A stretch of DNA of 64,000 bases from Mobula hypostoma (taxonomy: Eukaryota), in the NCBI RefSeq assembly GCF_963921235.1, contig NC_086108.1, positions 91,080,001-91,144,000 on the forward strand, in the 5' to 3' direction. The position numbers were made by a program, and so were the translations under genes. Under the pieces are notes generated by a model. The model was not told the origin of the DNA. It worked only from the letters and a program-made list of their open reading frames with translations, and searched no databases. Shown piece by piece: positions 5,404 to 63,619 of the stretch (the stretch's first letter is position 1; each line of letters starts with the position of its first letter).

Positions 5404-5422
5404 AAGCACAGACTTTAAAATG

Positions 5423-15000: not shown

Positions 15001-15064
15001 GATTTGGGGCTCCTGTGTGAACATACACGTCCCAAACTTACTTTCCAAACTCCGCCAGCAATTA

Positions 15065-15153
15065 GCACCCACAAAATGCTAAAGGAACTCAGCAGGTAGC
15101 ACCTATAGAAATGAATAAACAGTTGACATTTCGGGACAAGACCCTTCATCAGG
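15065..15153 (-). mobile_element. PLE terminal-repeat remnant with hammerhead core
   Basis: Minus strand CTGATGA-agggtcttgtccc-GAAA-tGTC-aactg; the 5' arm of stem I is lost. Confidence 0.75.
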
Positions 15154-18734: not shown

Positions 18735-19100
18735 AAGTTCCCTTCTGTTCACCTCACCTGCCTATCACCTCCTTCTGATGTCCTTCTTCCTTTCTTTCTC
18801 TCATGGTCCACTCACCTCTCCTATCAGATTCCTTCTTGAGCCCCTTACCTTTTCTACATATCATCTCCCAGCTTCTCACTTTAGATCCCCTATCCCACCT
18901 ACCGACCTTCCTCTTTTCCTGGCTTCATCTATCACCTGTCAGCATGTATTCAGTCCCCTCCTGCCACCTTCCTCTTTCAGCTTCTTCCCCCTTTCTTTCC
19001 AGTCCTGATGAAGGGTCATGGTCTGAAATGTCGACTGTTTATTCATCTTATAGATGCTGTTAGACCTGCTGAGCTCCTCCAGCAATTTTTTTGTGTGTTA
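18735..19100 (+). mobile_element. PLE 3' UTR/terminal repeat
   Basis: Pyrimidine-rich PLE 3' region, then cagtcctgatgaaggg...gaaatgtcgactg and agatgctg...cctgctgagctcctccagca. Confidence 0.85.
19000..19037 (+). ncRNA. Minimal type I hammerhead ribozyme motif (sense to DPYD pre-mRNA)
   Basis: CAGTC-CTGATGA-agggtcatggtct-GAAA-T-GTC-GACTG: perfect 5-bp stem I, intact core, weakened stems II and III. Confidence 0.6.
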
Positions 19101-24335: not shown

Positions 24336-24454
24336 CTCCGGCTCCTTCCAGAAACGTCAACTGTTTATTCCGGTCCCTGCACACACTGACACACTTTCAG
24401 CTTCCCCGGCCCTGAGATTCAGCATTCCCTCAATAAACCTGTCTCCTTTTATAC

Positions 24455-24735: not shown

Positions 24736-25547
24736 ACACAAGCGGGAGGAGATTGAAATAAGCTTAGTTTCTCTCCTTCGAATTACATCTTTTCCCCTTG
24801 CAGACTAATTTATGTAGATAATAAGCAAAGTGTGTCTGCTGCACCATCAGCTTACTTAATCCATTTATTTCCTGGTTGCCCCTTTTCCCTTGTTGAGATG
24901 CCCCATAGCCAATTCAGCAATTCAGAAGCTAGTAAAAGATGTCAGTAGATAATCTGTCTCTGAAGATAGAGGAATCTACAAAGGAGGGAAGAAGAGAGAG
25001 GTTCTTTAGCTTGAAATGTCATCTCTTTATTCCACTCCATAGATGCCCCCTGACCTGCTAAGTTACTGTAGCATTTTATGAGTATTGCCCAAGATCAGCA
25101 ACCTATACTGTATGAGAGATTAACTGATGTTGTGAAGACTGAAGAAAACAATCTTCTTGAGGGTCAGAGTGAAGGTAGAGGGGATAAGAAGGTAAGGTCA
25201 GTAAACTGGGGGCAAATCAACCACAGTCTGACTAAATCACGGAGCACTTCTGAAGGGATTAATGATGTTTATTTATCAATGTACCAGCCCAGAGATATAA
25301 TCCAAAAGGCAAGGTTACAGTCCTGATTCCAATTTTTGGTGTCATTTTCTTGACTCCGATGTATCCATCCAAAGTAGACATTGTCATTCACATGTGGATT
25401 GAAACAACTGAGCCGATCTGAAAACTGAAATCCATTCTGCTGCGTCTAGGCCATTCATATGGAAGGTATCACTGGTCCAGTATACAGTATAATCCCTTTA
25501 TTTAGTTTTTAATTGCAGAAGAGAAATGAATATTGGATAAGCACAAA

Positions 25548-28392: not shown

Positions 28393-29952
28393 TTACCCTG
28401 TAATTCTGTTAACATTGTTTTGTATGACCATTAAAATGCACAAAGATAATTCAACAAATGTTGGATGATTTTCATCCAACAGCTCCTAACTTCTGTAAAC
28501 TATCAATCTGTGTTTTACTTTTACAGATAATGAGTAATTTATTGTGCATTTCTGGTAATTTTATCCTTTTGCTTGAATCTTCCAGTGTTTGTGGGAGTTT
28601 CTTCTTTAAACCTGTACTTCTGGCTGTAATAAATATTAATTCACTTCAACACTGAGAATAGTTTAGGTCATATGAGTAAAATACTCTCATGACATTCAAT
28701 GCACGCAAATATTATTCTGCGTAATGCATGCGATTGGCCTGTATAATTCAAATATTAACTTCAGTTTTTTTGTTGAGGGTCTGTGGAGCTGAAATGTAAC
28801 TACAAATGACTTGTCATCAAAGTAATGGAGCATTACTCATTTCCAATAAAAATTCAAATTTTGTTCTGTCTACCTCTTGGACATACTCAGCTTTACCTCT
28901 TTTTCCTTTATTGGAAGAACCATTTAGACCATCAGACCATTAGGAGAAGAATTAGGCCATTTGGCCCATTGTGTCTGCTCCTTAGGTGGTTAATTTAGAC
29001 AATTACAGAGCAAGCAGCACTCATCAAATAATTAAGATGGGTAATATCTTTTATTTCAGAATCTGGTAAGTTAGGGAAGGTGAGCTATTGTCTGTAGGAC
29101 TCATTATAACCAAAGCTTGCCTTCTTTCCATAAATTTCCATTTACAAAAAAAAAGCCCAGAATGGAAATTTGAGAAATGTGATCACCTCTTGATCAAGCA
29201 GTGTTGAAATAGGTTGTTGTGTCTTGAGTCCAACATAGCACAATTAAGAATTTCAAAATATGCTGAGAATTACACTCAATTTTTTTCATAGCTCAATTTG
29301 ACTTTTCATCCTCTCATAAAATTTCTCCTGCTTGCTTTTGCATCTCCTAATTTGTTTTTTAATTCTCAAGATCTAGGGTCATGTGATTGTAATTTCCTTA
29401 AAATGACTGGTAATTCCATTCACTTATATTGGAAATAATATGAGGCATTGATTGTGCTCAAACAACTAATGTGAGTGGAAGGATGATGCAGCTTGATACA
29501 GTACTGATTTTTTTTAAAGTGCGGATGCTGGAAATCAATAATAAAAACAGAAAATACTGGAAATACTCGGCAGGTCAATCTGCATCTGTGGGAGGTAAAA
29601 CAAAGTTAATGATTCCAATGAAAACTCTTCTTCAGAATTCGAACTTTTGAAGAACCTTCTTCAAAATATAAAACAATACTGAAGTGTTTCATATCCTATT
29701 TTTCTATGGCCAAAGAGGGTTCTCCTGAATTCTTTACTGGATTTATTAATGAATTATATGGGTATGGTCCCCAATTTTAATGTTCAATGTAAAAATATTT
29801 TTTTTCATATCTGTCGAAGTCATTTCAATATAGAGAGTTTCATAGAGTTGAAAAGCACAGAAGTGGGCATTTATCCCATCTCATCTATGCTGACCATGAT
29901 ATCTATCAACTCTACTCACGTTAGGTCCATATCCTTTTTTCTAGCCAAGTAA

Positions 29953-32110: not shown

Positions 32111-32364
32111 TTATGGGCTTCAGTCTATGTCCAGGCTTCAATCTTCAGTGTTGACCCCAGGCTAGTCGATAACAGGACCAAGAACTCCAGGTTCAAACTC
32201 GGGAGTCACCAATTCACCAGGCCCTCTAAAGGGACTAAAAGGTCCCTTTCTTCATCCATACTATGCTATTTCAGTCTACAAGCTATTTATCGTTTGTTAG
32301 AAATTGGCACCTCACACTGCTCTACACCGAAATTAATTTGCACAATCATTCTACAAGTTTATTA

Positions 32365-32701
32365 GGCCAGGCAGCATCTATGGAAAAGAGTAAACAGTCG
32401 ACGTTTCGGGTCGTTTCGGGAATTTACACAAATAATTATTTTGCTAGCATTCTTTCTTTGTATGAAATTGTATGCCTTCATCATTGTCAACTGGACATTT
32501 AAAAATCTTCTGCTGATTCCCAAGTCCAAATTATTTGTGTAAATTCCGAACCAGCATACAGTATATCATTAAGAACAGAAGAAAATCTGCGGATGCTGGA
32601 GATCCAAAGCCGGAGATCCATTCAGCCCGAAACGTGAACTGTTTACTCCTTTCCATAGATGCTGCCTGGCCTGCTGTGTTCCTCCAGCATTTTGTGTGTG
32701 T
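32365..32701. mobile_element. PLE terminal-repeat fragments in both orientations
   Basis: Minus: ggcagcatctatggaaaagagtaaacagtcgacgtttcggg. Minus piece at 32572-32615 is joined to a plus piece gcccgaaacgtgaactg...ccagcattttgtgtgtg. Confidence 0.75.
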
Positions 32702-34739
32702 ATCATTATGAATAAGATAGTCCACCTTTCAAAATCTGAGTTGGTGTTCTTAATCCCCTATTCGCTGTTTCTGCATTGTAGCCAAATTGCTGTCCATTCC
32801 TCATCCCACCTCCCGACTCCATATCCTCATACTTTGGCCAAGCTATAGTGTCATAAATGTAAACAAATTACATCTATTACATTACCTAACTTAAACTTTC
32901 AATCATTTCGTCAAAGACTTCATATGGGTTGATCATGCATGACTTTCTCATATGAATTTTGTTACATCTTTGAGAAAATATTTTGTTATCTTTCCTACCA
33001 CTAGTTTCAAATTATCTGATCTCTTGTTCTGCAGATATGTACAAGAATTACATTAACTATCAGACCTTCCTGTCACTGTCCGGTTTTCTAATGAACTGAT
33101 TTTTATATATAATAGTCTCTGATAGTTAACCATCTAATAAGTGCCCCCAGATTAAGGGTTTGAGGTTTTATTTTCTGAGTTCCAGTAGTATGATGGCCAC
33201 CTCATTAGCATCCCTGGTAAACAGCAACTGGAAGTTATGTTCAACAGTTATGCAGAAGCAGAATATTTGTGTGTTAACATAAAAATTGAAATACTTGAAT
33301 ATTCAATCTAGGTCAATGGTTCTTCAATTCTGTTACCTTCTCCACAGTTCCTGTCTGTCTTACTCAGCATTCTGCTTTTAATTCAATAATTGTGCACGTT
33401 GCATTTTTTTAGAAGTTTTTTTTTAAGGGAGCTTAAGTTTTTGCCTCCTCGTGTGCAATGATTACCGAAACATTTAGTTGACAGGTACATTTTCCAGTAC
33501 TTGTAATATTGCCCTTTCATGAAGCAACTTTGACAGATTTCTAAATGTGGCAGCACTCTGCGTTTATCCAGCTGGGGCCTGTTCTTCTTAAATCGGCCAC
33601 CTGCCTGACAGATTATGCACATCACCAGTGGCTCTCATTAAAGTAGCCGTAGTTCACCGGTTCTTATACCTCTAAAGGAACTCAGAATGAATTATTATGC
33701 AACATAAATCCGCTGTCATGCAGAACATGAGACAGGTCTGAGGCAGCCTTGGATTAATGAGGCTAAGTGAGTTCCTTCCCTGCATTACAGCTGCATAGCA
33801 ATCATTGAACACATTTTTTGTTGACCATAGGCCTGGAATCCTTTGTACTAATACTTTAGGATTATGTATTCTGTTTACTAAGATATGCTTTGAGGCACTG
33901 GTTGGCTAAACAAACATAAAGAAACACAGGCTCTCCCTGTTGACTTAATAACAGCTGAGCAAAATGATGTATTTAGGTTTTCAAATTTAATTATGGAATA
34001 TCACAGTACATTCAGAATGGATAAATTGCAGTGTCAGGGTGGCATTTTAACGCTGGTAGTTTGTTGTCTTCCCTAATTAACCATGCACACTTTGTTTCTC
34101 AAGCATTATATCTAAGATTTTTCATACAGATTACTATCATCTTCTACTAACTATTAGAAGGGGAAACAGGGAAACTAGTGATTGCGACTGATAGTACATA
34201 TCCCCAGCGTGAATCATATCTAAATCGCTTCACATCTGAGAGATTTCAGTCGTAACCCTCAGGAGACTGACTGTCTTTTACAGCTTGTTATATATATTTT
34301 ATACATATTATACATAAAAAATATTTTTAAAAAATCTGATAATAGGAATGAATTAAAACAGAAAATCCTAGAAACGCTCAACAGGAGGGGGGAGATTAAC
34401 ATTTCAGGTCAAAGACGCTTTGTCAGAACTGCAGGGAGGGTGGGGGAGGGTGAGCATCTATGATAGGCTGAAACCCTGATGACCATGGGGGCTCTGTACT
34501 GTTGCAAATGAGGCCTTATCAGGCCTCAGAGACAGCAATCATCTTCTCTCCAGGCATGTTGACCCTTTTAGACTCAATACCGAATTTTACCACTTCAGGT
34601 AACTTGCTTTCTGTCTCTATTTGTCTTCCATTTGTGAAATCGGCTCAGTCTGCATTTTCCCTGTTTTACCCCTTTTATTTCCTTTCCTCTGGAAATGGAG
34701 GACTGTTCACTTCGAGCTGATGGACATTAATTTCAGTTT

Positions 34740-35420
34740 TGCATTGTGCAGCACCTCTTTTGTCTATGCAAGTCTGTCGAGGTCTGATACAGTATCCAGT
34801 GCTCCCAGTGCAGCTTCCTGTACATCGGTGACACTCAGTGTAGATTGGGGGACCATTTTCTTCATCACCCTTGCTCCATCCACTGGAGGCCGCCCATTCC
34901 CATTTCCATTTGGACATGCCTCCTTTACTGCCATGATGAGGCCACATACAGGTTGGAGAAGTAACACCTCATATTCCATATATGAATATCAATTTCTCTA
35001 ACTTCCCCCTCCTCTTCTGTCTTTTTCCATTCCTCATTGTGGCTCTCCTTTTACCCCTTCTCTTATCCTCACCTGCCCATCATCTTCCTCTGGTGCTCCT
35101 CCTCCTTCCTTCCTCTCATAATCTGCAGTCCTCTCCTATTAGATTCCTTCTTCTTCAGCTGTTTACCTTTTCCACCTATCTCCTCCCTGCTTCTTACATC
35201 ATCCACCCTTCCCCACCCTCCTTCACCCTCACCTTGTCTCACGTTACACCTGCCGGCTTGTACTCCTGTCCCTTCCCCCCCCCCCATCTTTTTCTGTCTT
35301 CTGCCCCCTTTCCTTTCTAGTCCTGATAAAGGGCCCCGGACCAAGACGTATTTGGTTTATTCCTCCCTGCAGATGCTGCCTGATGTACTGAATTCCTCCA
35401 GAATTTTGTGTGTGTTTCAC
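34740..35420 (+). mobile_element. PLE GIY-YIG endonuclease remnant plus 3' repeat
   Basis: IQCSQCSFLYIGDTQCRLGDHF...LLYCHDEATYRLEK*HLIF..MNINFSNF; decayed hammerhead agtcctgataaagggcc at about 35319. Confidence 0.85.
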
Positions 35421-36589
35421 ACTCCCATTCACTCACTCAGGATAACCTTGTTTACGGTTTAGCCCCACTTTCACCCTTTCAGAGTTAACCTCTCTTTCAG
35501 CCTTCCTGAATTTCTTTTCTTTCCTTCCCAGTTATGACAAAAAGGTTTTCAACATAAAGCATTATCTCTTCCTTTTCCCAGAGATGCAGCAGAAACTGCC
35601 GTGTACATACAACATCTACAGTTTTTATTGTTGATTTCCAGCTTCTGCAATTCATTTTCTTATTTTTGGGAATAAACATAGGCAAAGGGATGTAAGAAAA
35701 ATAACTTCAAAATGTAATAAGTAGCAAAATTAAATGAGAGAGGAAATGCCACTATCAATTTAGTTTGAATTAATTTCTGCCATAATCTGTCATATGTAAT
35801 ACCCACTACAGTTAACAAACACTAACATCAATGATTGAGTGTGATATAGAGAAAAGTATATGAAGAAATTATTTGAATGATTTGTTCTCATAATTACTGA
35901 TTCATATTCACCTGGAAGGTGAATTCATAATTCATATTCACCTTTGTCCTAGGCTCAGTTATCAAATGATATATGCAAGATAATATCTGTGCAGATTTAT
36001 TACAAGTTGCTGATGACTCCATCATTTGCTTTTTTTCCATTCTAAAACTATAGTTTTCCCGATATTTTCATCTTGTAATTGCACTATTAATAAGTAAAGT
36101 TCTGCAGATGTTGGATGTCTGAGGTAAAATTAAATATCCAGGACAACACTCACCAGGTCAGATGACATCTGTTCTCTTCTCCCCCACTTGTCTTGATGAG
36201 TATCTCCAGCATTAATTACAATATTTTCATCATGAAATATCATGTAACTGCACTTCAAAAATTATAGAGGACATTTGTACTCAGGAATGTGAAATATATT
36301 TTTAACAAAGTAAACTTTATTTACAATAAAAAAATTAATAAGAATAAACCGTTCCACGCTTTTGCATGCTTGACAATATGGTCAATGCTTTCCATAACAG
36401 TTCTAGCACTGCTGCCTCTCATGTGGTATTTCCATGTTTTATTAAGTTCAATCACTGATGGTTAAATATGTATCTTTTAAGAGAATCATATCACTTTTGT
36501 TTAAAAGTAGCTTCATAGCTTGGAACAATATCTAAATTTCTTCCAAGCACTATATTTTACATTTAAGTAGATTAGCACTCACATCTACT

Positions 36590-40311: not shown

Positions 40312-43300
40312 CGGGCTCGATTTCTGAGGTTGGCGGCGGAGGCCTCACTTCCGGGAGCTGTGGATGTGCACCAACGGGGCTTTACAGTGGTCGCTCCGGG
40401 GAAGCGTCTGGGACACCTTGAGGTCTCTGACGTCACTTCTGTGTGGTCATCTGCTCCGGAGAGGTGCTGGCCCGACAAGGAACACCCGACGACGTGACCT
40501 GCCGATCGATCTCCACGGGACGCGTCCACCAAACTCAAAGAGATGACAACAACACACTGCATAGATGGAAACCTGGAAAGATGCACTATTTACTGAGGAA
40601 GTGTGGGAAAAGAGCTGGGCTGCTGGTCAGATTGAAGCTGAGGGGCTTCGGGGTCCCTATGCCCACCATCCTACTAGCTAATGTGCAAGCCATAGAGAAC
40701 AAGGTGGATGATCTTAAAGGGAGACTCAGCTACTGCAGGGAGATGCAGAACTGCTGCGTTATCTGTTTCACCGAGACCTGGCTCTCCCCTGCCACCCCCA
40801 ACTGTGCCATCCGACCGGAGAGACTTTTGATCCATCCGATGGACCGCACGGCGTCTTCGGGCAAGATGAGGGGAGGTGGTGTCTGCCTACTGATCAACAC
40901 TGGGTGGCGCTCGGACACAGTGGCACTGACAAGCTCCTGCAGCCTGGATCTGGAACACCTGTCGGTGAAGTGTCGTCCCTACTATCTGCCACGGGAATTC
41001 ACCTCGGTCATACTGACAGCGGTCTACATTCCCCCCCAGGCAGACGTGGAGTGTGCTCTGAACATACTGTGTGCCAACATCAGTGAACTTGAAACCAGGT
41101 ATCCGGAGGCTTTGCTCATTAAGCCAGGGACTTTAATCAGGCCAAACTCAGAAAGGCGCTGCCAAAGTTATACCAACATGTTTCCTGCCCCACTGGATGC
41201 CCGAATGTACTTGACCACTGCTACACAGCAGTCAAGGATGCCAACCGTTCCACCCCACGACCTCACTTCGGAAAATCGGACCATCAGGCCGTACTCCTCC
41301 TCCCGGCTTACAAACAGAAACTGAAGCGGGAGGTAACGGTGTCAAAAGTGGTGTCGCGTTGGACGGAAGAAACGGATGAGGTTCTCCGTGACTGCTTTGA
41401 ATCGGTGGACTGGTTAGTATTCAAGGACTCGGCAGCAAACCTCGATGAGTATGCCTCAGCTGTCACGGTCTTTATTTGGAAATGCACGAAGGACTGTGCG
41501 TCTCGCAAGACGATCTGGGTATTCCCTAACCGGAAACCTTGGATGAATTATGAGGTCAAGTCCCTTTTGAAGGCTAGAGCTGTGGTTTTTAGGTCCGGGG
41601 ATACCCGTCGCTGCACGGAATCCAGACATGAACTCCGGAAAGCCATTAAGCCTGCCAAGAGGCAATATCGAGCCAACTTGGAAGCCCAGGCTAACCAGAG
41701 GGATGCTGGTAGACTATGGTAGGGTCCAAATGAGATCACTGGGCACAAAGAAAAGGCTGGGAATATCAATAACTGTGGCGCCTCTCTTCCTGACGAACTT
41801 AACGTATTCTACGCAAGATTGGAACATAAGAGGAGCGTCCTGCTCCCTCCGGATGAACTGGACCTGGTGGCATTGAGATTCATCATCACCAAGGAGGACG
41901 TTAGAAGGACCTTCCTGAAGATAAATCCAAGGAAGGCGGGGGCCCAGATGACGTCCCTCGACGGGTTATCTGGGCCGGTGCAAGCAAGCTAGCTGGAGTG
42001 TTTGCTGACATCTTCAACTGCTCCTTGCTTAAGTCTAAGTCCCCCTCATGTTTTAAGAAGGCAATGATAATCCCGATGCCGAAGAAGAGCAAGGTGGCAT
42101 GCCTGAATGACTATTGACCTGTGGCTCTGACATCAATTGCTATGAAGTGCTTGGAGCGATTGGTTATGGCACACATCAGCCACAGCCTACCGGTCAACGT
42201 CGACGCTTTGCAATTCGCCTACTGGAGCAACAGGTCAATGGCAGATGCCATCTCTCTGTCTCTGCATTCCTCCTAAGAACACCTGGAGAATAAAGACGCA
42301 TATGGAAGGCTCCTTTTCATTGACTACAGCTCTGCCTTTAGTACCATCTTTTCAAATAAATTGAAACCTAAGCTCTAGAACCTAGGCCTTAGCACTCAGA
42401 TCTGCAGCTGGATCTTCAACTTCTTCACAGACAGGACTCAGGCCGTAAAAATAGTGGACAAGCTCTCCTCTACAATCACTCTGAGCACCGGTGCCCCACA
42501 AGGCTGTGTACTCAGCCCCCTGCTGTACTCACTGTACACCCATGATTGTGTATCCAAGTTTCCATCGAACTCAATATATAAGTTTGTGATGACACCACAA
42601 TTGTAGGCCACATCTCAGGTAATGATGAGTTTGAGTACAGAGAGGAAATTAAGAACCTGGTGGCATGGTGCGAAGACAATAACCTATCCTTCAACATCAG
42701 CAAGATGAAGGAATTGGTTGTTGACTTCAGAAGGAGTAGCGGACAGCACAACCCCATTTACATCAGTGGTGCGCAAGTGGAACAGGTCAAAAGCTTTAAG
42801 TTCCTTGGGGTCAATATCACAAATGACCTGACTTGGTCCAACCAAGCAGAGTCCACTGCCAAGAAGGCCCTCCAGCGCCTTTACTTCCTGAGAAAGCTAA
42901 AGAAATTTGGCCTGTCCCCTAAAACCCTCACTAATTTGTATAGATGCACCGTAGAAAGCATTCTTCTAGGGTGCATCACAACCTGGCATGGAAGTTGTCC
43001 TGTCCAAGACTGGAAGAAGCTGCAGAAGATCGTGAACGCACATCACCACAAACCAATCTTCCGTCCTTGGACTTACTTTACACCACACGCTGTTGGAGCA
43101 GTGCTGCCAGGATAATTAAGGACTTGACCCACCCAGCCAACACACTTTTCGTCCCTCTTGCCTCCGGGAGAAGACTCAGGAGCTTGAAGACTCGTACGGC
43201 CAGTCTTGGGAACAGCTTCTTTTCTACTGTGATAAGACTGCTGATCGGATCCTGACCCAGATCTGGGCCGTACCCTTCAAATATCTGGACCTGCCTCTTG

Positions 43301-43484
43301 GTTTTTTTGCACTACGTTACTTTCCCTTTTCTATTTTCTATTTATGATTTATAATTTAAATTTTTAATATTTACTGTTGATTTGTACTCCAGGGAGCGTG
43401 AAGCGCAGAATCAAATATCGCTGTGATGATTGTACGCTCTAGTATCAATTGTTTGGCGACAATAAAGTATAAGGTATGAAGTAT
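40312..43484 (+). mobile_element. Near-full-length Rex1/Babar LINE (APE + RT, frameshifted), nested in an older Rex1
   Basis: APE: PTILLANVQAIENKVDDL...CFTETWL...RGGGVCLLIN...[55 protein letters not shown]. Ends AATAAAgtataaggtatgaagtat. Confidence 0.92.
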
Positions 43485-44645
43485 ACAAACACCAACGTCA
43501 GGATGCTGTTCATCAACTATAACTCAACATTTAACACCATCATTCCCACAATCCTGATTGATGTTACAGAACCTGGGCTTCTGTACCTCCCTCTGCAATT
43601 GGATCTTTAACTTCCTAACCGGAAGACCACAATCTGTGCAGATTGGTGACAACATATCCTCCTCGCTGACGATCAACACTGGCACACCTCAGGGTGTGTG
43701 CTTAGCCCACTGCTCTACTCTCTATATACCTATGACTGTGTGGCTAGACATAGCTCAAATATCATCTATAAATTTACTGATAATACAACCATTGTTGGTA
43801 GAATCTCAGATGGAAACGAGAGGGTGTACAGGAGTGAGATATGCCAACTAGTGGAATGGTGCTGCAGCAACAACCTTGCACTCAATGTCAGTAAGATGAA
43901 AGAGCTGATTATGGACTTCAGGAAGGGTAAGATGAAGGAACACATACCAATCCTCATAGAGGGATCAGAAGTGGAGAGAGTGAGCAGTTTCAAGCTCCTG
44001 GGTGTCAAGATCTCTGAGGATCTAACCTGGTCCCAATATATTGATGTAGTCATAAAGAAGGCAAGACAGTGGTTATACTTCATTCAGAGTTCGAAGAGAT
44101 TTGGTATGTCAACAAAAACACTCAAAGACTTCTATAGATGTACTGTGGAGAGCATTCTGACAGGCTGCTTTACTGTCCGTTATGGAGGGGCTACTGAACA
44201 GGGCCGGAAGAAGCTGCAGAGGGTCATAAATTTAGTCGGCTCCATCTTGGGTACTAGCCTACCAAGTACCACAGACATCTTTAGGGAGCAGTGTCTCAGA
44301 AATCAGCGTTCATTATTAAGGACCTCCAACACCCAGGGGATGCCCTTTTCTCACTGTTACCATCAGGTAGGAGGTACAGAAGCCTGAAGGCACACACTCA
44401 GTGATTCAGGAACAACTTCTTCCTAAATGGACAATGAACGTGTGAACACTACTTCACTTTTTTAATATATATTATTTATGTTTTTGCATGATTTTCAATC
44501 TATTCAATATACATATACTGTAATTGATGTACTGATTTATTTATTTATTTATTCTTCTATTTTGTGTATTGCATTGAACTGCTGCTGCTGAGTTAACAAA
44601 TTTCACGACACATGCCGGGGCTAATAAACCTGATTCTGATTCTGA
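43485..44645 (+). mobile_element. Rex1/Babar RT/3' part (host element; its 5' remnant is 40254-40311)
   Basis: HNRSTADTILMALHKALDH (40254-40310) resumes as TNTNVRMLFINYNSTFNTIIP; ORF 43698..44387; (TGATTC)n tail. Confidence 0.9.
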
Positions 44646-46164: not shown

Positions 46165-46388
46165 TTTTCTGACTGGGTAGCAACCAACTTGATGGCATGA
46201 ACATCAACTTCACTAACTTCCAGTAATTATTGCCCTCTCTAACTTAGCTCTTCTTCCATTCCCCACTCTAGTTATCCTCTCACCCCTCCCTCTACTTACC
46301 CATCTTCCCTTTCTTCCATGTTACCCTGTCCTCTCATATTAGATTCCTTCTTCTTTAGCCCTTTACCTCTTCCACCTATTACCTCCTA
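46165..46388 (+). mobile_element. PLE ORF end and 3' UTR fragment
   Basis: LGSNQLDGMNINFTNFQ* followed by a pyrimidine-rich tract. Confidence 0.75.
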
Positions 46389-47200
46389 TCAAGACCCTAT
46401 CAAGCTCTGCCTTAAATACACCCAACGACCTGTCCTCCTGTCCTCGGCAGCTGCCCATGGTAATAAATTCCACAAATTCAACACCTTCTGGCTAAAGAAA
46501 TTTCTCTGCATCTCTGTTTTAAATGGAGGTCCCTCAACCCTGAGGCTCTGCCCTCTTGTCCTAGACTCCCTCACATGGGCAACATCCTTTCCACATCTAG
46601 TCTCAGCCTTTCAACATTGGAATGGCTTCAAGGAGATCCCTCCTCATCCTTCTAAATTCCAGCGAGTACAGACCCCGAGGTATCAAATGTTATTGATGAT
46701 TTTGATGGTAACTTAATGAATAAGTTGCAGATGACACCAAACTGGTGATATTCAGATAGTGTCAGTGACAGTTTTAGGTTACAACAGGATCTAGATCAAC
46801 TGAGAATGCAGGCCACGAATGGCAGATGGCCAAGTGCAAATTAATCCAGGGCAGGCCTTACACAGTAAATGGTAGATCTTTGGAGAGAATTGTAAAACAG
46901 AGAGACCTAGGAGTAAAAATGTATAGTTTTCTGAAAGTGCCAATGCAAGTAAACAGATTGGTGGAGAAGGATCTGACACACTTTCCTTCATCAGTTAGGG
47001 CACTAAATACAGGAATTGGGACATAATGATTAAGACATTGTTGAGATCACACTTGGAGTATTATGTGTAGTTCTGGTCATAGGAAGGATGTCAATAAACT
47101 GGAGAAGTTCTGGTAAGGATTCATGTGAATGTTCCTGCGATTGAGGTGCTTGAGTTGTAAGGAGAGATAGGATATTCTGAGGCTTTTTCCCTGGAGTGTC
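46389..47200. mobile_element. Two CR1 fragments (minus 46389-46695; plus about 46700-47200)
   Basis: RESRTRGQSLRVEGPPFKTEMQRNFFSQKVLNLWN; K.ADDTKL...KQRDLGV. Confidence 0.8.
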
Positions 47201-47272: not shown

Positions 47273-47660
47273 AGAGGAGAAAATCTGCAGATGCTGGAAA
47301 TCCAAGCAACATGCACACAAAAGCTAGAGGAACTCAGCAAGCCCAGCAGCATCTATGGTAAAGAGTAAACAGTTGACGTTTCAGGCTGAGCCCCTTCATC
47401 AGGACTGGAAAAAAATGTTGAGAAGTTAGAGCAAGAAGGTGGGGGGAGAGGAAGAAGAAGTACAAGGTGGTAGGTGATGGGTGAAACCAGGAGCAGGGGA
47501 AAGGTGAAGTAAAGAGCTGGGTTGATAGGTGAAAGAGATAAAGGACTGGAGAAGCGGGTATCTGATATGAGAGGGAGGAGACTATGGAAGAAAGAGAAGG
47601 GGAAGAAGCACCAGAGGGTGGTGATGGGCAGATAAGGAGTTAAGGTGAGAGAGGCAATAG
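47273..47660 (-). mobile_element. PLE 3' UTR/terminal repeat with hammerhead motif (47370-47407)
   Basis: Minus strand CAGTC-CTGATGA-aggggctcagcct-GAAA-C-GTC-AACTG. Confidence 0.85.
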
Positions 47661-48952: not shown

Positions 48953-50478
48953 GCATAGAGCATAGAACATAGAATAGTACAGCACAGTACAGGACCTTCG
49001 GCCCACAATGTTGTGCCGACCCTCAAGCCCTGCCTCCCATATAAGCCCGCACCTTAGATTCCTCCATATACCTGTCTAGTAGTCTCTTAAACTTCACTAG
49101 TGTATCTGCCTCCACCACTGACTCAGGCAGTGCATTCCACGCACCAACTACTCTCTGAGTAAAAAACCTTCCTCTAATATCCCCCTTGAACTTCTCACCA
49201 CTTACCTTAAAGCCATGTCCTCTTGTATTGAGCAGTGGTGCCCTGGGGAAGAGGCGCTGGCTATCCACTCTATCTATTCCTCTTATTACCTTGTACACCT
49301 CTATCATATCTCCTCTCATCCTCCTTCTCTCCAAAGAGTAAAGCCCTAGCTCCCTTAATCTCTGATCATAATGCATACTTTCTAAACCAGGCAGTATCCT
49401 GGTAAATCTCCTCTGTACCCTTTCCAATGCTTCCACATCCTTCCTATAGTGAGGTGACCAGAACTGGACGCAGTACTCTAAGTATGGCCTAACCAGAGTT
49501 TTATAGAGCTGCATCATTACATCGCGACTCTTAAACTCTATCCCTCGACTTATGAAAGCTAATACCCCATAAGCTTTCTTAACTACCCTATCCACCTGTG
49601 AGGCAACTTTCAGGGATCTGTGGACATGTACCCCGAGATCTCTCTGCTCCTCCACACTACCAAGTATCCTGCCATTTGCTTTGTACTCTGCCTTGGAGTT
49701 TGTCCGTCCAAAGTGTACCACCTCACACTTCTCCGGGTTGAACTCCATCTGCCACTTCTCAGTCCACTTCTGCATCCTATCAATGTCTTTCTGCAATCTT
49801 TGACAATCCTCTACGCTATCTACAACACCACCAACCTTTGTGTTGTCTGCAAACTTGCCAGCCCACCCTTCTACCCCCACATCCAGGTCGTTAATAAAAA
49901 TCACGAAAAGTAGAGGTCCCAGAACAGATCCTTGTGGGACACCACTAGTCACAATCCTCCAATCTGAATGTACTCCCTCCACCACCACCCTCTGCCTTCT
50001 GCAGGCAAGCCAATTCTGAATCCACCTGGCCAAACTTCCCTGGATCCCATGCCTTCTAACTTTCTGAATAAGCCTACTGTGTGGAACCTTGTCAAATGCC
50101 TTACTAAAATCCATGTAGATCACATCCACTGCACTACCCTCATCTATATGCCTGGTCACCTCCTCAAAGAACTCTATCAGGCTTGTTAGACAGGATCTGC
50201 CCTTCACAAAGCCATGCTGACTGTCCCTGATCAGACCATGATTCTCTAAATGCCTATATATCCTATCTCTAAGAATCTTTTCCAACAGCTTTCCCACCAC
50301 AAACGTAAGGTTCACTGGTCTATAATTACCCAGACTATCCCTACTACCTTTTTTGAACAAGGGAACAAACATTCGCCTCCCTCCAGTCCTCCGGTACCAT
50401 CCCCGCGGACAACGAGGACATAAAGCATAAAGATCCTAGCCAGAGGCTCAGCAATCTCTTCTCTCGCCTCGTGGCAAC
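48953..50478 (-). mobile_element. Young 5'-truncated CR1 LINE with uninterrupted 449-codon RT/C-terminal frame
   Basis: ORF 49023..50372: NYRPVNLT, QHGFVKGRSCLT, YMDFSKAFDKVPH, SGVPQGSVLGP, KFADNTK; (TTCTATG)n tail. Confidence 0.95.
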
Positions 50479-50906
50479 CCGCAGGATGGAGAAGCAACAC
50501 CTTATATTCTGTCTGTGTGGCCTCCAAACTGATGGCATGAATATTGATTTCTCCTTCCAGCAAAAAATGTTTCCTTCCTGTTCCCATCATCTTCTATGGA
50601 CTTTTACCTATTCTCACCTACCTATCACTTCCCCCGGACCCACTCCTCGTTCCCTTTCTCCTATGGTCTACTCTCTTGTCCCATCAAATTCCTTCTTCTC
50701 CAGCCCTTGACCTTTCCCACCCAACCAACTTCACTTTTCACCTTCTAGCTAGCCTCCTTCCCTGCCCCACCTTTTTATTCTGGCATCTTGCCTGTTCCTT
50801 TTCAGTACTGATGAAGAGGCCCGGCCCAGAACTTCGACTGTCCTAAGCTCTTCCAGTACTTTGTGTGTTGCTTTGGATTTCCAGCATCTGCAGACTTTCT
50901 CATGTT
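50479..50906 (+). mobile_element. PLE ORF end plus terminal repeat (decayed hammerhead 50803-50840)
   Basis: RMEKQHLIFCLCGLQTDGMNIDFS; cagtactgatgaagagg...cttcgactg; ends ccagcatctgcagactttctcatgttt. Confidence 0.85.
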
Positions 50907-51675: not shown

Positions 51676-51770
51676 GCGTAGTGATCCATCTATACAACCA
51701 ATAGCCTTACAGCCACAATTTTAGATGTGAGAGTGTAGAATCAGCCAATCAGCCAATATTTCTATTGGGA

Positions 51771-52312
51771 AACACACACAGTATGCTGGAGGGACTTAGC
51801 AAGTCAGACAGCACCTCTGGAGAGGAATAAATAGTCGCTATTTTGAGTCAAGACTCTTCATAGTCATAGTCATAGTCATACTTAATTGATCCCGGGGGAA
51901 ATTGGTTTTCATTACAGTTGCACGATAAATAATAAATAAATAGTAATATGTAAGTTATGCCAGTAAATTATGAAATAAGTCCAGGACCAGCCTATCGGCT
52001 CAGGGTGTCTGACCCTCCAAGGGAGGAGTTGTAAAGTTTGATGGCCACAGGCAGGAATGAGTCTCTGGCTGAATGTACTCCTGTGCCCACCCAGTACATT
52101 ATGTAGTGGATGGGAGACATTGACCAAGATGGCATGCAACTTAGACAACATCATCAAGACTAGAAAGAAAAGGAATAAAACCCAGAACCCCTTTTTCCTT
52201 TCTAATCCCCATGAAGGGCCTCAATTCAAAACTTTGAATATTTATTCCTCAGTTCCTGCAGCATTTTGTGTGTTGCTCAAGATTTCAAGCATCTGTAGAA
52301 TCTCTTGTGTTT
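51771..52312. mobile_element. Inverted pair of PLE terminal repeats interrupted by a Rex1 3' fragment (51861-52150, minus)
   Basis: Minus repeat ...agactcttcat | catcaagactag, then plus repeat ccccatgaaggg...gcatctgtagaatctcttgtgttt. The insert encodes LSKLHAILVNVSHPLHNVL..RSTFSQRLIP and has a (TAGTCA)n tail. Confidence 0.78.
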
Positions 52313-53192: not shown

Positions 53193-56100
53193 TGAGGGGA
53201 AGCTGAGGGGTTGATAGACAAGATATACAGGGAGGAGGACACAAGGTGCAGGACAAAGGTAACTGGGTGACCATCAGGAAGGGGAATGGGGATAGAGAGC
53301 CAGTGCAGAGTACCCCGGTGGCCGTTCCCCTCATCAACAGGTATACCGCTTTGGATACAGTTAACCTAGCAGACGAAAGCCACTATGGTTAGGTCTCTGG
53401 CACTGCTTCTGGCTCTATGGCTTAGAAAGGAAGGGGGAGAAGAGCAAGCTGCGGTGATAGGGGATTTTTTGGTCAGGGGAACAGAAAGGAGGCTCTATGG
53501 ACAAGGGCAAGATTCCTGGATGGTGTGCTGCCTCCCAGATGCCAGTGTCAGGGACATCTTGGATCAAGACTATATCATTCTCAAGTGGGAGGGTGAGCAG
53601 CCAGAGGTCATGGTCCATATAGGAGGGACATGGGTAAGAGGGGCGATGAGGTCCTGCAAAGTGAGTTCAGAGAGTTAGGTGATAAGTTAAGGACAGGACC
53701 TCCAAGGTTGTGATCTCAGGATTGCTACCCATGCCACGTGCTTTTTAGCCAGAAATTGGAAAATCATGCAGTTTAACACATGGCTATGGACAGTGCATGC
53801 AGGAGAGCTTCATATCTTTGGATCAGTGTGCTGTCTTCTAGGGAAGGTGAACCTGTACAGGTAGGATAACTTGCACCTGAACCAGAGGGGAAGTAATATC
53901 CTAGCAGGAAAGTTTGCTCGTGCTGCATGGGGGTGTTTAGACTAGAGTTGCAAGGGGATTGGAACCAGAGTGCTAGAACAGATAGTGGAGTGGTTGTGTA
54001 GAAAGATGTGTTAAGCTTACATACAAAGTAAGCAATCGAAAGTTCAAGCATGGTGGGACTAATGTTCTGAGCTGTGTATATTTCAATGTAAGGAGCATTG
54101 TGAGAAAGGCAGATAAGCTTGAGGCTGGATCAGTACATAGAATTATGAGATTGTAGCCATTAGCGATATTTGGTTGCAGGAGGGGCAGGACTAGTGGCTC
54201 AATGTTCCAGCTTTCTGTTGTTTTCGACATCATAGAGTTGGGGAGATTAACAGGAGGGTTAACATTTCTAGTCAGGGAAAATATCACAGCAGTGCTCAGT
54301 CAGGACAGACTGGAGAGCTCAGCTAGTAGGGCTTCATGTGGAGAAATGAGGAATAAGAAATATAGAAACATAGAAACATAGAAAATAGGTGCAGGAGTAG
54401 GCCATTCGGCCCTTCGAGCCTGCACCGCCATTTATTATGATCATGGCTGATCATCCAACTCAGAACCCAGCCTTCCCTCCATACCCCCTGACCCCTGTAG
54501 CCACAAGGGCCATATCTAACTTCCTTTTAAACATAGCTAATGAACTGGCCTCAACAGTTTGCTGTGGCAGAGAATTCCACAGATTCACCACTCTCTGTGT
54601 GAAGAAGTTTTTCCTAACCTCGGTCCTAAAAGGCTTCCCCTCTATCCTCAAACTGTGACCCCTCGTTCTAGACCTCCCCAACATCGGGAACAATCTTCCT
54701 GCATCTAGCCTGTCCAATCCCTTTAGGATCTTATACGTTTCAATCAGATCCCCCCTCAATCTTCTAAATTCCAACGAGTACAAGCCCAGTTCATCCAGTC
54801 TTTCTTCATATGAAAGACCTGCCATCCCAGGAATCAATCTGGTGAACCTTCTTTGTACTCCCTCTATGGCAAAGATGTCTTTCCTCAGATTAGGGGACCA
54901 AAACTGCACACAATACTCCAGGTGTGGTCTCACCAAGGCCTTGTACAACTGCAGTAGTACCTCCCTGCTCCTGTACTCGAATCCTCTCGCTATAAATGCC
55001 AGCATACCGTTCGCCTTTTTCACCGCCTGCTGTACCTGCATGCCCACTTTCAATGACTGGTGTATAATGACACCCAGGTCTCGTTGCACCTCCCCTTTTC
55101 CTAATCGGCCACCATTCAGATAATAATCTGTTTTCCTATTTTTGCCACCAAAGTGGATAACTTCACATTTATCCACATTAAATTGCATCTGCCATGAGTT
55201 TGCCCACTCACCCAACCTATCCAAGTCACCCTGCATCCTCTTAGCATCCTCCTCACTGCTAACACTGCCACCCAGCTTCGTGTCATCCGCAAACTTGGAG
55301 ATGCTGCATTTAATTCCCTCATCCAAGTCATTAATATATATTGTAAACAACTGGGGTCCCAGCACTGAGCCTTGCGGTACCCCACTAGTCACCGCCTGCC
55401 ATTCTGAAAAGGTCCCGTTTATTCCCACTCTTTGCTTCCTGTCTGCTAACCAATTCTCCACCCACACCAATACCTTACCCCCAATACCGTGTGCTTTAAG
55501 TTTGCACACTAATCTCCTATGTGGGACCTTGTCAAAAGCCTTTTGAAAATCCAAATATACCACATCCACTGGTTCTCCCCTATCCACTCTACTAGTTACA
55601 TCCTCAAAAAATTCTATGAGATTCGTCAGACATGATTTTCCTTTCACAAATCCATGCTGACTTTGTCCGATCATTTCACCGCTTTCCAAATGTGCTGTTA
55701 TCACATCCTTGATAACTGACTCCAGCAGTTTCCCCACCACCGACGTTAGGCTAACCGGCCTATAATTCCCCGGTTTCTCTCTCCCTCCTTTTTTATATGA
55801 CCACATTAACGGGATTATGTTATGGACCACCCAACAGTTCATAAGAGTTAGAGAAGCAAGTTTGTAGAGAGATTTCAGACAGTTGAAATAAACTTAAGAT
55901 TGTTATAGTAGGTGATTTTAACTTTCCACATATTGACTGGGACTCCAATACTGTGAAAGGGATAGATGGGAAAGGGTTTGTCAAATGTGTTCAGTAAAGT
56001 TTTCTTCATCAGTATCTAGAAGTCCCAACTAGAGAGAGTGTGATACTAGATCTCCTACTAGGGAATGAAACAGGACAGGTGACAGAAGTTTGTGCAGGGA

Positions 56101-56489: not shown

Positions 56490-57735
56490 CAAGTCAAGTC
56501 AAGTCAAGTCAAGTCAAGTCAAGTCACTTTTTATTGTCATTTTGACCGTAACTGCTGGTAGAGTACACAGTAAAAACGAGACAGCATTTTTCAGGACCAT
56601 GGTGCTACATGAACAATACAAAAACTACACTGAACTACGTAAAGCAACCCAAAACTACACTAGACTACAGACCTACCCAGACTGCATAAAGTGCACAAAA
56701 CAGTGCAGGCATTACAATAAATAATAAACAAGACAATAGGCACAGTAGAGGGCAGTAGGTTGATATCAGTCCAGGCTCTGGGTATTGAAGAGTCTGATGA
56801 CTTGCGGGAAGAAACTCTTACATGGTCTGGTCGTGAGAGCCCAAATACTTCGGTGCCTTTTGCCAGATGGCAGGAGGGAGAAGAGTTTGTATGAGGGGTG
56901 TGTGGAGTCCTTCATAATGCTGTTTGCTTTACGGATGCAGCATGTGGTGTAAATGTCTCTAATGGCGGGAAGAGATACCCCGATGATCTTCTCAGCTGAC
57001 CTCAATATCCGCTGCAGGGTCTTGCGATCCGAGATGGTACAATTTCCGAACCAGGCAGTGATGCAGCTGCTCAGGATGCTCTCAATACAACCTCTGTAGA
57101 ATATGGTGAGGATGAGGGTGAGAGATGTACTTTTCTCAGCCTTCGCAGAAAGTAGAGACGCTGCTGGGCTTTCTTTGCTATGGAGCTGGTGTTGAGGGAC
57201 CAGGTGAGATTCTCTGCCAGGTGAACACCAAGAAATTTGGTGCTCTTAACGATCTCTATGGAGGAGTCATCGATGTTCAGTGGAGAGTGGACGCTCTGTC
57301 TCCTCCTGAAGTCAACAACCATCTCTTTTGTTTTGTTCACATTCAGAGACAGGTTGTTGGCTCTGCACCAGTACGTTAGCCGCTGCACCTCCTCTCTGTA
57401 TGCTGACTCATCATTCTTGCCGATGAGACCCACCACGGTCGTGTCATCTGCGACTTGATGATGTGGTTCGAGCTGTGTGTTGCAGCACAGTCGTGGGCCA
57501 GCAGAGTGAACAGCAGTGGACTGAGCACACAGGCCTGGGGGGCCCCGTACTCAGTGTGATGATATTGGAGATGCTGCTTCCAATCTGGACTGACTGAGGT
57601 CTCCCAGTCAGGAAGTCTAGGATCCAATTGCAGAGGGAGGTGTTCAGGCCCAGTAGGCTCAGCTTTCCAATCAGTTCCTGAGGAATGATTGTGTTGAATG
57701 CTGAACTGAAGTCTATGAACAGCATTCAAACGTAC
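56490..57735 (-). mobile_element. Rex1/Babar RT/3' fragment
   Basis: [14 protein letters not shown]...[39 protein letters not shown]; tail seen as (CAAGT)n at 56490-56525. Confidence 0.92.
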
Positions 57736-57737
57736 AA

Positions 57738-59580
57738 GCAACACACGCAAAAAAATGCTGGTGAACGCAGCAGGCCAGGCAGCATCTATTGGAAGAGGTA
57801 CAGTCGACGTTTCGGGTCGAGAACCCTTCATCAGGACTAACTGAAAGAAGAGATAGTAAGAGATTTGAAAGTGGGAGGGTGAGGGGGAGATCCAAAATGA
57901 TACGAGAAGACAGAAGGGGGAGGGATAGAGCTAAGAGCTGGAAAGTTGATTGGCAAAACAGATACAAGGCTTGAGAAGGGAGAGGATCATGGGACAGGAG
58001 GCCAAGGGAGAGAGAAAGGGGGAGGGGAGCCCACTATAGTGAGAGGGACAGAGGGAGAAAAAAGAGAGAGAGAAGAAAGGGGGGGGGAATAAATAAATAA
58101 ATACGGGAAGGGGTACGAACGGGAGGTGGGGCATTAACGGAAGTTAGCGAAGTCAATGTGCATGCCATCAGGTTGGAGGCTACCCAGAACGTGTTGTTCC
58201 TCCAACCTGAGTGTGGCTTCATCTTGACAGTAGAGGAGGCCGTGGATAGACATATCAGAATGGGAATGGGATGTGGAATTAAAATGTGTGGCCACTGGGA
58301 GGTCCTGCTTTCTCTGGCGGACAGAGCATAGGTGTTCAGCAAAACGATCTCCCAGTCTGTGTCGGGTCTCGCCAATATATAGAAGGCCACATCGGTAGCA
58401 CCGGACGCAGTATATCACCTCAGCCGACTCACAGGTGAAGTGTCGCCTCACCTGGAAGGACTGTCTGGGGCCCTGAATGGTGGTAAGGGAGGAAGTGTAA
58501 GGGCATGTGTAGCACTTGTTCCGCTTACAAGGATAAGTGCTGGGAGGGAGATCGGTGGGAAGGGATGGGGGGAACAAATGGACAAGGGAGTCGCGTAGGG
58601 AGCGATCCCTGCAGAAAGCAGAAAGTGGGGGGGGAGGGAAAGATGTGCTTAGTGGTGGGATCCTGTTGGAGGTTGCGGAAGTTACAGAGAATAATATGTT
58701 GGACCCAGAGGCTGGTGGGGTTGTAGGTGAGGACAAGGGGAACCCTATTCCTAGTGGGGTGGCGGGAGGATGGAGTGAGAGCAGATGCGTGTGAAATGGG
58801 AGAGATGCGTTTGAGAGCAGAGTTGATTGTGGAGGAAGGGAAGCCCCTTCCTTTAAAAAAGGAGGACATCTCCTTCATCCTGGAATGAAAAGCCTCATCC
58901 TGAGAGCAGATGTGGCAGAGATGGAGAAATTTCGAGAAGGGAATGGCATTTTTACAAGTAGCAGGGTGGGAAGAGGAATAGTCCAGGTAGCTGCGAGAGT
59001 CCGTGTGTTTATAGTAGACTTCAGTGGATAAGCAGTCTCTGGAAATAGAGACGGTGAGATCGAGAAAGGGGAGGGAGGTGTCGGAAATGGACCAGGTAAA
59101 TTTGAGGGCAGAGTGAAGTGGGAGGCAAAGTGGATGAAGTCGACAAGTTCAGCGTGGGTGCAGGAAGCAGCACCAATGCAATCGCTGACGTAGCGTAGGA
59201 AAAGTGCAGGACGGTCATCAGTGTAGGCTTGGAACATAGACTATTCCACATAGCCAACAAAGGGCCACACCTTTTGATTGAAGGAAGTGGGAGGAGCCAA
59301 AGGAGAAATTATCTAGAGTGAAGGAATATTCCACTAGACGGAGGGGAGTGATGGTGAGGGGAACTGGTTAGATCTGGTGTCCAGCAAAAAATAGAGAGAT
59401 TTGAGGCCTTGCTGCTGGGGAATGGAGGTGTATAGGGACTGGACATCCATAGTAAAACTAAGGTGATGGAGAGGCCAGGGAACCTGAAATAATTGAAAAG
59501 GTCCAGAGTGTGAAGAGATACGGATGTAGTTAGGAAGAGACTGTACTCGGGGCGGTGGGGGGGCGGGGGTAGTTGAGGAC
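57738..59580 (-). mobile_element. Penelope-like element (RT C-terminal half, Cys-rich linker, GIY-YIG endonuclease, terminal repeat); frameshifted
   Basis: MDVQSLYTSIP; FLRYVSDC; PFLDL; YYKHTDS..YLDYSSSHP; YPCKRNKCYTCPY; VIYCVRCYRCGLLYIGETRHRLGDRFAEH; LQPDGMHIDF. The Cys linker suggests the Neptune-like group. Confidence 0.93.
57801..57839 (-). ncRNA. Minimal type I hammerhead ribozyme, intact core
   Basis: TAGTC-CTGATGA-A-GGGT(tctcg)ACCC-GAAA-C-GTC^GACTG: stems I and II pair, palindromic ACGT as stem III; predicted cleavage between 57806 and 57805. Confidence 0.8.
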
Positions 59581-59585
59581 CCATT

Positions 59586-59696
59586 CAGGTAGACCCTTTG
59601 TTTCAGCTTGTTACAGTTAGACCCATTTTTTCAGCTTGTTACAGGTAGACCCATTCTTTCAGCTTGTTCAGGTAGACCCATTACTTCAGCTTGTTC
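59586..59696 (+). repeat. Minisatellite, 4 x ~28 bp
   Basis: Unit caggtagacccattNtttcagcttgtt(a). Confidence 0.9.
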
Positions 59697-59786
59697 CTGC
59701 CCCACTGAATTCATATCTGCTTACCTCGATTTAAGAAAATTTAGATAAGCAGCTGAACGAGTGTTCAATGGAGGGAGGTATGTCAA

Positions 59787-62390: not shown

Positions 62391-63449
62391 GTGAGGAAAA
62401 AAATTTGCAGTGCTTGTGGAGCATGTAATCCAGTACCCAAAATATATAATGTTCTACAGCTATAGTTTAACTCGCTCTTTTCATTTAAGCCAAGTGAAAT
62501 CTCTGCTACAAACCTAAATTGTTGGGGGAGAAATCTATTAAAAGTCTATCAAATCAGCAATAATTAATCTGGGAACCCAATTGTATGTCACCAGCAATAT
62601 AAAAGCTATTTTCATCTAACAATAAACAGGCAGCATGCATCAAAAAGCTACAAACTCTCTAATTTAATATAATATTCTTGCAGTCTTTTGAAAACATGTT
62701 GTACCTCCAACCATCTCAAAACAATCTGCAGGAATAGCTCAGAAACAATCTGATTCCGAGCTGCAATAATGCATACTAGGCATGTGTTCAAATGCTGGAG
62801 CACCAAATTATGTTTTAAGGAGTTACTTAAAGGACAGGCTGTTTAACCAACTGGAACTACAGATGTTCATTGTGACAGCAACAATAATTTCCAGGTTATT
62901 CTTTCTATCCATTTACTTCAACATAATTATGAGGCTATGAGTTTTGAATACTAAATGCTGTAAAAAATGTTGTAAGCATTTGGAACCAAGGATACAGTCT
63001 AAAATAAAAAATAAGTTTTTGTACCTTTCAAAGACTGATGCTCTAGGTACAGTATTTGCATGTGAGAAATTGGCTGCACAGTTGAGAATCTTAGTTTCAA
63101 ACATTTTGCCAGCTTTGCTAGTCCCCGTCATAAAATTTGAACCAAAAAACTGAACACACTCTTACCTCGCCCCATGCATTAGATATTAAGGGTAGGTTCT
63201 GAATGGTGAAGATGTTCAGCGATTTTTACCTGCCAAGTAAAATCAATGCTAAATTTGATCAAAACCTGAAGAGGATGATATATATTCCTGTCACTAAGCT
63301 GCATTGCGGTGTATCCTGCTCCCATCATTTTTACAACAGTCAGCCTACTCATCTTATAAGAAGTCAAAGAAGGTTTATTTACCAATGCAATCTGTTAAAA
63401 AAAGATGCACAGTGTTAAGATACAAAGGACCTATACCCTAAGGTTGATG

Positions 63450-63545
63450 CAACACTCACAATACGCTGGAGGAACTCAGCAAGTCGGGCAGCATCCGTGG
63501 AAAAGCTCGGTCGACGTTTCGGGCCGGAACCCTTTATCAGGGTTG
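63450..63545 (-). mobile_element. PLE terminal repeat with mutated hammerhead (CTGATAA)
   Basis: Minus strand ctgataa-agggttccggccc-gaaa-cgtc-gacc. Confidence 0.75.
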
Positions 63546-63619
63546 ATATTGCTTGAAGGGCAGTGTTGAGGTCCTCCATCATGAAAGATGCTGGAGACAT
63601 TCTTCCAACAGAAAAAGTA

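Follow-up and report, generated by a model that had tools for sequence, protein, structure and literature searches.

A mostly decayed minimal type I hammerhead motif at the 3' end of a probable Neptune-type Penelope-like element in a ray

A short motif with the core of a hammerhead ribozyme recurs along a 64-kb stretch of DNA from the ray Mobula hypostoma (hereafter the window, meaning the whole stretch of 64,000 nucleotides), and this raises the question of whether its copies are working ribozymes or the remains of one. The first-pass annotation had taken the window to hold a very high-copy catalytic RNA family, carried by the repeats of Penelope-like elements (PLEs). An answer depends on what the motif is, on the element that carries it and on the condition of the individual copies.

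The copy at 57802-57838 on the minus strand is the only one, among 15 full-span copies compared in the window, in which the core and every stem are unbroken. On the element strand, from 57838 to 57802, its letters are AGTC CTGATGA A GGGT TCTCG ACCC GAAA C GT C GACT, and its parts are placed in Table 1. It has the core CUGANGA, GAAA and UH with G10.1-C11.1 that marks a PLE minimal type I hammerhead, and it matches point by point the consensus that PMC4209133 gives in its supplement 2 ('U-rich NNN CUGANGAH GNNN..NNNC GAAAN palindrome NU H'). Stem III is loopless and palindromic, reading ACGU in this copy and likewise in the window consensus, and the extra base between A9 and G10.1 is an A in 16 of the 16 copies that cover the position. 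The letters, core, extra A and loopless ACGU are thus as first described, within a span (57801..57839) that was one flanking base too long on each side. The 4-bp stem II that had also been described is present here, but its fourth pair, U-A, is not a family feature. Contigs from related organisms have G at 57817 (element strand) in 80-97% of depth, which gives three G-C pairs and a U.G; the window consensus agrees with this, and the 57802 copy stands alone in its U-A pair and 5-nt loop. A search of the window with Rfam gave no hammerhead match up to an E of 5, and its three chance matches were to other families. Rfam hammerhead families have the same catalytic core letters, and the loopless form escapes their models.

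Eight main sites and four faint ones had been listed earlier and all twelve were located, the former at 11066-, 15121-, 19001+, 35319+, 47371-, 50804+, 57802- and 63509-, the latter at 13820+, 29604-, 34394- and 52204+. The simple pattern CTGATGA-N1-25-GAAA has 8 matches in the window compared with 2.06±1.60 expected, a number that 0 of 100 shuffles reach, and five of these eight belong to the family. A motif profile finds 22 remnants with E≤0.011, not counting a 28-nt match to the tail only (32580-32607). Thirteen of the 22 were seed rows, and the E-values of those are inflated; the best of the 9 non-seed matches has an E of 1.2e-20, and the best match in the reversed window, used as a control, has an E of 1.1. 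The 21 pieces lie 12 on the plus and 9 on the minus strand, with no apparent bias. It had been claimed that the motif always follows the end of a GIY-YIG ORF. This is true of the family but not of each copy, since the endonuclease end is retained upstream in 4 of the 21 pieces (57802, 11066, 35319 and 50804). Endonuclease-end fragments of the same PLE are also present at 46173-46400(+) and 6294-6410(+), and no hammerhead was found behind either.

Table 1. Positions in the window of the 57802 motif and its parts, of its host element and of the other copies.
Feature	Position	Strand	Remarks
Minimal type I hammerhead motif	57802-57838	-	Sequence and fit to published PLE consensus
Stem I (4 bp)	57835-57838/57802-57805	-	
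CUGAUGA	57828-57834	-	
Extra A after A9	57827	-	
Stem II (4 bp)	57823-57826/57814-57817	-	
GAAA	57810-57813	-	
Palindromic loopless stem III, ACGU	57807-57810	-	
C17	57806	-	Predicted cleavage position 57806/57805
Broken, 5'-truncated PLE ORF	58134-59450	-	RT core/thumb, CX4CxxC linker, GIY-YIG with CCHH
Pyrimidine-rich 3' UTR (pseudo-LTR part), ORF stop to hammerhead	57839-58133	-	74% like 11027-11431
Conserved 3' tail, short form	57735-57801	-	Abuts LINE RT fragment below 57735
PLE insertion inside LINE fragment	11025-11533	both	Minus copy (EN end, UTR, hammerhead 11066-11101, U16.1G) and inverted tail ~11430-11533(+)
Decayed copy, GAAA-GUC half gone	13820-13943	+	
Old decayed copy, absent from earlier list	14270-14355	+	Profile E 3.4e-7, non-seed
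Copy alike only from hammerhead onward	15062-15156	-	Core intact, stems I and III broken
Copy with UTR	18994-19103	+	Core intact, C11.1 and C15.2 to T
Faint decayed copy	20035-20116	+	Profile E 0.002
Faint 3'-half fragment	24344-24372	+	Profile E 0.011
Fragment: 3'-half and tail	25004-25099	+	Profile E 1.9e-14, non-seed
Old decayed copy	29515-29642	-	A15.1T
Back-to-back pair, 3'-half hammerhead and tail	32363-32707	32363-32413 -, 32622-32707 +	Inverted tail end 32580-32607
Faint decayed copy	34354-34431	-	C7, G8A; profile E 0.0011; missed by tail-only profile
Copy with EN end (34737-34982), UTR, dead hammerhead (35319-35354)	34737-35420	+	G8A, G12A, A14G
Older decayed copy directly after 35319 copy	35528-35652	+	
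Copy with UTR and long tail	47278-47412	-	Core intact, G1.1A, C11.1T
Copy with EN end, UTR, dead hammerhead (50804-50839)	50456-50900	+	G12A, A13G
Copy broken off at A6 by adjoining short-repeat tail; absent from earlier list	51770-51861	-	E 1.2e-20, non-seed
Decayed copy	52197-52305	+	U4C, G5C, G12A
Copy of different subfamily, alike from hammerhead onward	63445-63546	-	G8A

On the element strand the order is ORF end, pyrimidine-rich UTR (which differs between subfamilies), hammerhead and conserved tail. The ORF stop at 58134 lies about 300 nt from the 57802 motif. Tails stop at about +70 or +100 from the cut site, so that there are two 3' end lengths and the hammerhead lies about 70-105 nt from the 3' end of the element. 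The ORF is damaged by frame changes near 59115 and at 58630-58660 and by stops in its 5' part, and its GIY-YIG domain match (E 0.002) is below the curated cut-off; the remnant nevertheless aligns across RT, thumb, linker and endonuclease to annotated proteins of Hypanus sabinus and Rhincodon typus. The endonuclease part shares 86% identity with a protein of Mobula hypostoma, 75% with Hypanus and 52-62% with three sharks, as against 38-44% with coral, urchin and snail proteins, a gradient that makes a ray the probable host. The window ORF has the CX4CxxC linker and the invariant CCHH residues of GIY-YIG, and the linker is common to 98 of the 104 fetched relatives that bear the YIG-ET motif. A zebra shark (Stegostoma) protein, P0003, reads through the UTR and terminates in a peptide encoded by the motif. 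This protein, together with P0001 and P0009, belongs to the Hypanus, Mobula and Stegostoma gene models that contain the PLE ORF; two bear host-gene names, and such models are probably annotations of intronic or exonised elements. Imperfect short tandem repeats with units of about 28-30 bp occupy 59584-59700, just upstream of the PLE remnant.

By the motif definitions of Craig et al. (2021, PMC8557442), the host element is probably a Neptune-type PLE. As described in the sections of that paper used here, Neptune elements share with the window element a C-terminal GIY-YIG with CCHH, a CX2-5CxxC linker, 5' truncation, an inverted 5' piece, an optional 30-40 bp tail and a canonical hammerhead. Nematis also carries the linker, and the assignment to Neptune rests on motifs, not on an RT tree. 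A difference from the Neptune elements described there is that the one window insertion with clear ends (11025-11533) has no microsatellite target. It has instead a target duplication of 15-18 bp with one mismatch (11010-11027 / 11534-11551); the same source counts such a duplication among the hallmarks of PLEs, along with an inverted 5' piece and 3' ends of two lengths. The 57802 copy itself is dead, being solitary and 5'-truncated with a broken ORF, and no second pseudo-LTR lies upstream of it (there is no profile match between 57843 and 63445). Since solitary truncation is typical of most copies, this weakens the notion of an active copy and not that of membership in the Neptune family.

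Metagenome contigs were searched exactly for the core with a GGG/CCC stem, stem I being left out of the pattern, and this gave at least 131 matches in at least 120 loci, with flanks unlike those of the window. Among the matches listed, stem I is paired at position 1 in 127 of 131 and at position 2 in 120 of 131. The first pair is C-G in the window and A-U in 123 of the 131 listed, and the second is U-A in the window and, among the same matches, C-G in 58, G-C in 52 and U-A in 7. In a clustered test, based on 25 groups formed from the 126 matches with full flanks and the window (5 of the 131 lacked full flanks and were dropped), 63 of 78 stem I pairs were Watson-Crick compared with a shuffle mean of 41.9; 0 of 10,000 shuffles reached 63, a result that is not to be read as a probability because the groups are related. 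Among the window copies themselves no covariation or compensatory changes in stem I were seen. PLE protein matches occur in 33 of the 120 loci, and in 30 of the 120 the motif is downstream on the same strand, again among the matches listed. These data bear on the suggestion that we are dealing with a chance resemblance in the 3' end of a repeat. The motif is short, Rfam does not recognise it and its fold is no more stable than those of shuffled sequences (z -0.57), all of which would suit an accident. Against this stand its constant place downstream of a PLE ORF, in the window as in the 30 other loci, and the printed record of the hammerhead as a general PLE feature (PMC4209133). Stem I covariation and the ORF linkage in other loci refute the suggestion, and we give it a negligible probability.

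Motif scans yielded 0 and 0 matches in viral contigs and 0 and 1 in prokaryote genomes. The single match (L121:2001-2028) is in a bacterial MAG contig, its flanks resemble a metagenome family and no PLE ORF match was found there; it is likely to be eukaryote contamination. Two other arrangements were seen among the metagenome loci. In L083 two same-strand hammerheads are embedded in tail-derived units that form a short tandem array, which is retrozyme- or satellite-like. L007, L020, L095, L114, L116 and L120 contain inverted, back-to-back pairs of hammerheads tens of bases apart, and the 3' ends of the second pieces in those loci concentrate between +46 and +61 relative to the cut site.

Among fish PLEs, Cervera and de la Pena (2014, PMC4209133) reported minimal hammerheads in Xena, Poseidon and Neptune elements, and for coelacanth (Latimeria) and Xenopus they give 4,000-9,000 motifs per genome. 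In the parts of that paper relied on here, the metazoan PLE motifs resemble the window family in being type I, in the U-rich 5' flank, in CUGANGA with an extra base and G10.1-C11.1, in the missing loop III and palindromic 15.2-16.2, in their location in the 3' pseudo-LTR and in occurring mostly as solitary truncated copies; the stem II of the window family (3 bp and U.G) is at the short end by comparison. The initial identification of a minimal type I hammerhead in a PLE 3' pseudo-LTR is therefore borne out. No cartilaginous fish is present among the chordate entries examined in supplement 2, and a literature search, which did not extend to Repbase or the 2017 dimer paper, found no publication specific to shark or ray PLE hammerheads. 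The family may be covered by the retrozyme preprint supplements, by supplement 1 of PMC4209133 or by the 2017 dimer paper. The work extends a general published PLE feature to rays and sharks, which is expected rather than surprising. The preprint in question (bioRxiv 10.64898/2026.07.22.740005) describes non-LTR retrozymes with type I hammerheads derived from PLE pseudo-LTRs and, in the portion cited, hammerhead retrozymes in the one chondrichthyan sampled. Those are tandem arrays with a hammerhead per unit, whereas the window contains dispersed single remnants and no such array. A retrozyme array was considered for the lone neighbouring pair at 35319/35528 and rejected, as its members are decayed and of different age.

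Most copies are in poor condition. All 11 invariant core bases are retained in 4 of the 15 full-span window copies, and in 14 of the 15 either the core or a stem is broken. The three CpGs of the motif (C11.1-G12, C15.2-G16.2 and C17-G1.1) show an identity of 0.56-0.65 among window copies, compared with 0.71-0.90 elsewhere in the motif, and in related contigs C11.1 reads T in 30-49% of depth. The decay of the motif in inserted copies is mainly of the CpG type. Column conservation in the window is 0.875 for the core and, in two comparisons, 0.812 (P=0.051) and 0.791 (P=0.037) for the tail, differences that are marginal and come from a motif-biased seed.

Folding predictions for the 57802 monomer keep stems I and II but pair G5-G8 with C15.2-C17 at a probability of 0.94-0.96. 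The double hammerhead has a predicted energy of -13.9 kcal/mol. Two monomers reach -21.2 and the best dimer -25.5, which leaves the active dimer about 7 kcal/mol worse off than two monomers; the energy model is one without core contacts or Mg2+, and the off-state hairpin is a prediction. The transcript 57760-57880, proposed earlier as a construct for cleavage assays, is predicted to misfold, with pair probabilities of 0.02-0.03 for stems I and II. The predicted monomer off-state accords with the published behaviour of such motifs, which are described as inactive singly and weak as dimers (PMC4209133).

Four public runs of related organisms hold contigs that match the stretch, 83,281 and 72,281 in the DNA runs and 6,644 and 4,906 in two that are probably RNA. 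Depth in all four peaks on the tail beside the motif, which is a sign of abundance and not of copy number, strand or expression level. These numbers might encourage the view that dispersed copies function as ribozymes in large numbers and cleave host transcripts. One intact copy in 64 kb would amount to many in a large genome, the repeat is represented in the probable RNA runs, and a palindromic stem III permits pairing in trans. That two of the runs are RNA is a guess, however, and contigs give neither strand nor ends. The 57802 copy has no tandem partner nearby, its active dimer is predicted to be the poorer fold and published single motifs show no cleavage (PMC4209133); to this may be added the damage in nearly all full-span copies and an orientation of the pieces that betrays no strand bias. 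We consider such a role very improbable. As to the high-copy catalytic RNA family originally proposed, very high copy is upheld, by the 22 remnants in 64 kb and by the DNA-run contigs. The catalytic part is not supported, with 1 of 15 full-span copies having core and all stems, and with published motifs that are monomer-inactive or in need of a protein.

A second alternative is that the motif persists in the element as a signal, structural or bound by protein, or as a passenger; cutting would then be a side effect that transposition can do without. The best comparison is with the Anolis Poseidon element PAc (Frangieh et al. 2024, PMC11167929). According to the sections of that study cited here, its hammerhead cleaves only with protein present, an element with a mutated hammerhead still inserts normally in vitro, and none of the RNA reads has its end at the cut site. 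Like the window family, PAc has a hammerhead upstream of two alternative 3' ends. It differs in having no Zn linker, in an ORF that starts inside the motif and in a cleavage that has been demonstrated, with protein assistance, for PAc. An ORF start of the Anolis kind would be removed in the relatives, where N7 is mostly C and the ATG is consequently lost. N7 is the most variable core position in related contigs (C in 60-91% of depth, among the variant rows listed). It is a known variable position of the hammerhead core.

The Anolis insertion data favour a signal or passenger, as do the Naiad PLEs, which are described as thriving without canonical hammerheads (PMC8557442). Loose ends at 57816 point in the same direction, since in runs X1 and X17 their consensus has an A6C core, and in X4 and X15 an A6 (0.54-0.64 agreement). 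A6C is reported as a slow natural hammerhead variant in PMC3088659, and the consensus suggests that a subfamily with this variant core may be present, and may have amplified, in related genomes. Further, in 121 loci no second piece starts within 2 nt of the cut site, the nearest being at +6, although the query window limited many of the 5' ends. Related-run contigs show no pile-up of ends at the cut site, and contigs cannot show ends. What argues against a signal or passenger is that all the catalytic bases and a covarying stem I are common to the ray and to distant families with unalignable flanks, which is the pattern predicted by selection for catalysis, and also that the Anolis motif does cleave when its protein is there. 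On balance we regard this alternative as unlikely, if a genuine possibility.

The reading that we prefer, and hold to be quite probable, takes the motif for the minimal type I hammerhead of a Neptune-type PLE of rays and sharks. In the master element it would be a weak ribozyme that depends on dimer formation or on protein, and it is now mostly fossil. Its position, its sequence, the link to an RT-GIY-YIG ORF and the covariation of stem I between families are established. An active master element would yield a tandem transcript whose two motifs swap strands, the ACGU of one pairing with that of the other as stem III and stem I forming between the two copies. Cutting after GUC would then process the precursor RNA, by analogy with the known family, and the element's protein or a chaperone might assist. 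A lone motif would adopt the predicted off-state, with G5-G8 paired to C15.2-C17. Reverse transcription would begin in the tail, immediately 3' of the motif, and copies are mostly 5'-truncated; the density of motifs may thus arise because motif and tail, next to the RT start, are copied most often. Inserted copies would be free of selection and would lose the motif mainly by CpG decay. The 57802 copy, which lacks both partner and promoter, is most likely inactive in vivo, a fossil in a good state of preservation.

So dense a family supplies the numbers for computational tests of cut-site breakpoints, of intron strand bias and of core variants. Whether ray genomes have enough copies to reveal a role in vivo, by way of the breakpoint and A6C leads, seems to us doubtful. 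In the insertion at 11025-11533 the inverted tail begins 1-2 nt ahead of the predicted cut site, as may happen if a 3' cleavage product served as RT template; this is the one cut-site start among the 21 window pieces. If 5' breakpoints prove to be in excess at the cut site across the genome, cleavage by a PLE ribozyme would have left its first footprint in vivo, and a young, abundant A6C subfamily, if there is one, would mean that efficient cleavage is dispensable.

For the rest, the window is repeat-rich animal DNA. Long open RT frames are found at 54460-55893(-) (477 aa) and 49023-50435(-) (470 aa), which resemble 3' halves of CR1-type LINE ORF2. Decayed pieces of a hAT-type DNA transposase lie at 26000-27580(+), with a Dimer_Tnp_hAT match at 27173-27577 (E 0.0014, below the curated cut-off). 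Fragments of another LINE family are at 40431-44387(+), 4807-5451(-) and 56766-57733(-), and the C-terminal part of that family matches Pfam ALKBH8_N at 57074-57550 (E 3.3e-13).
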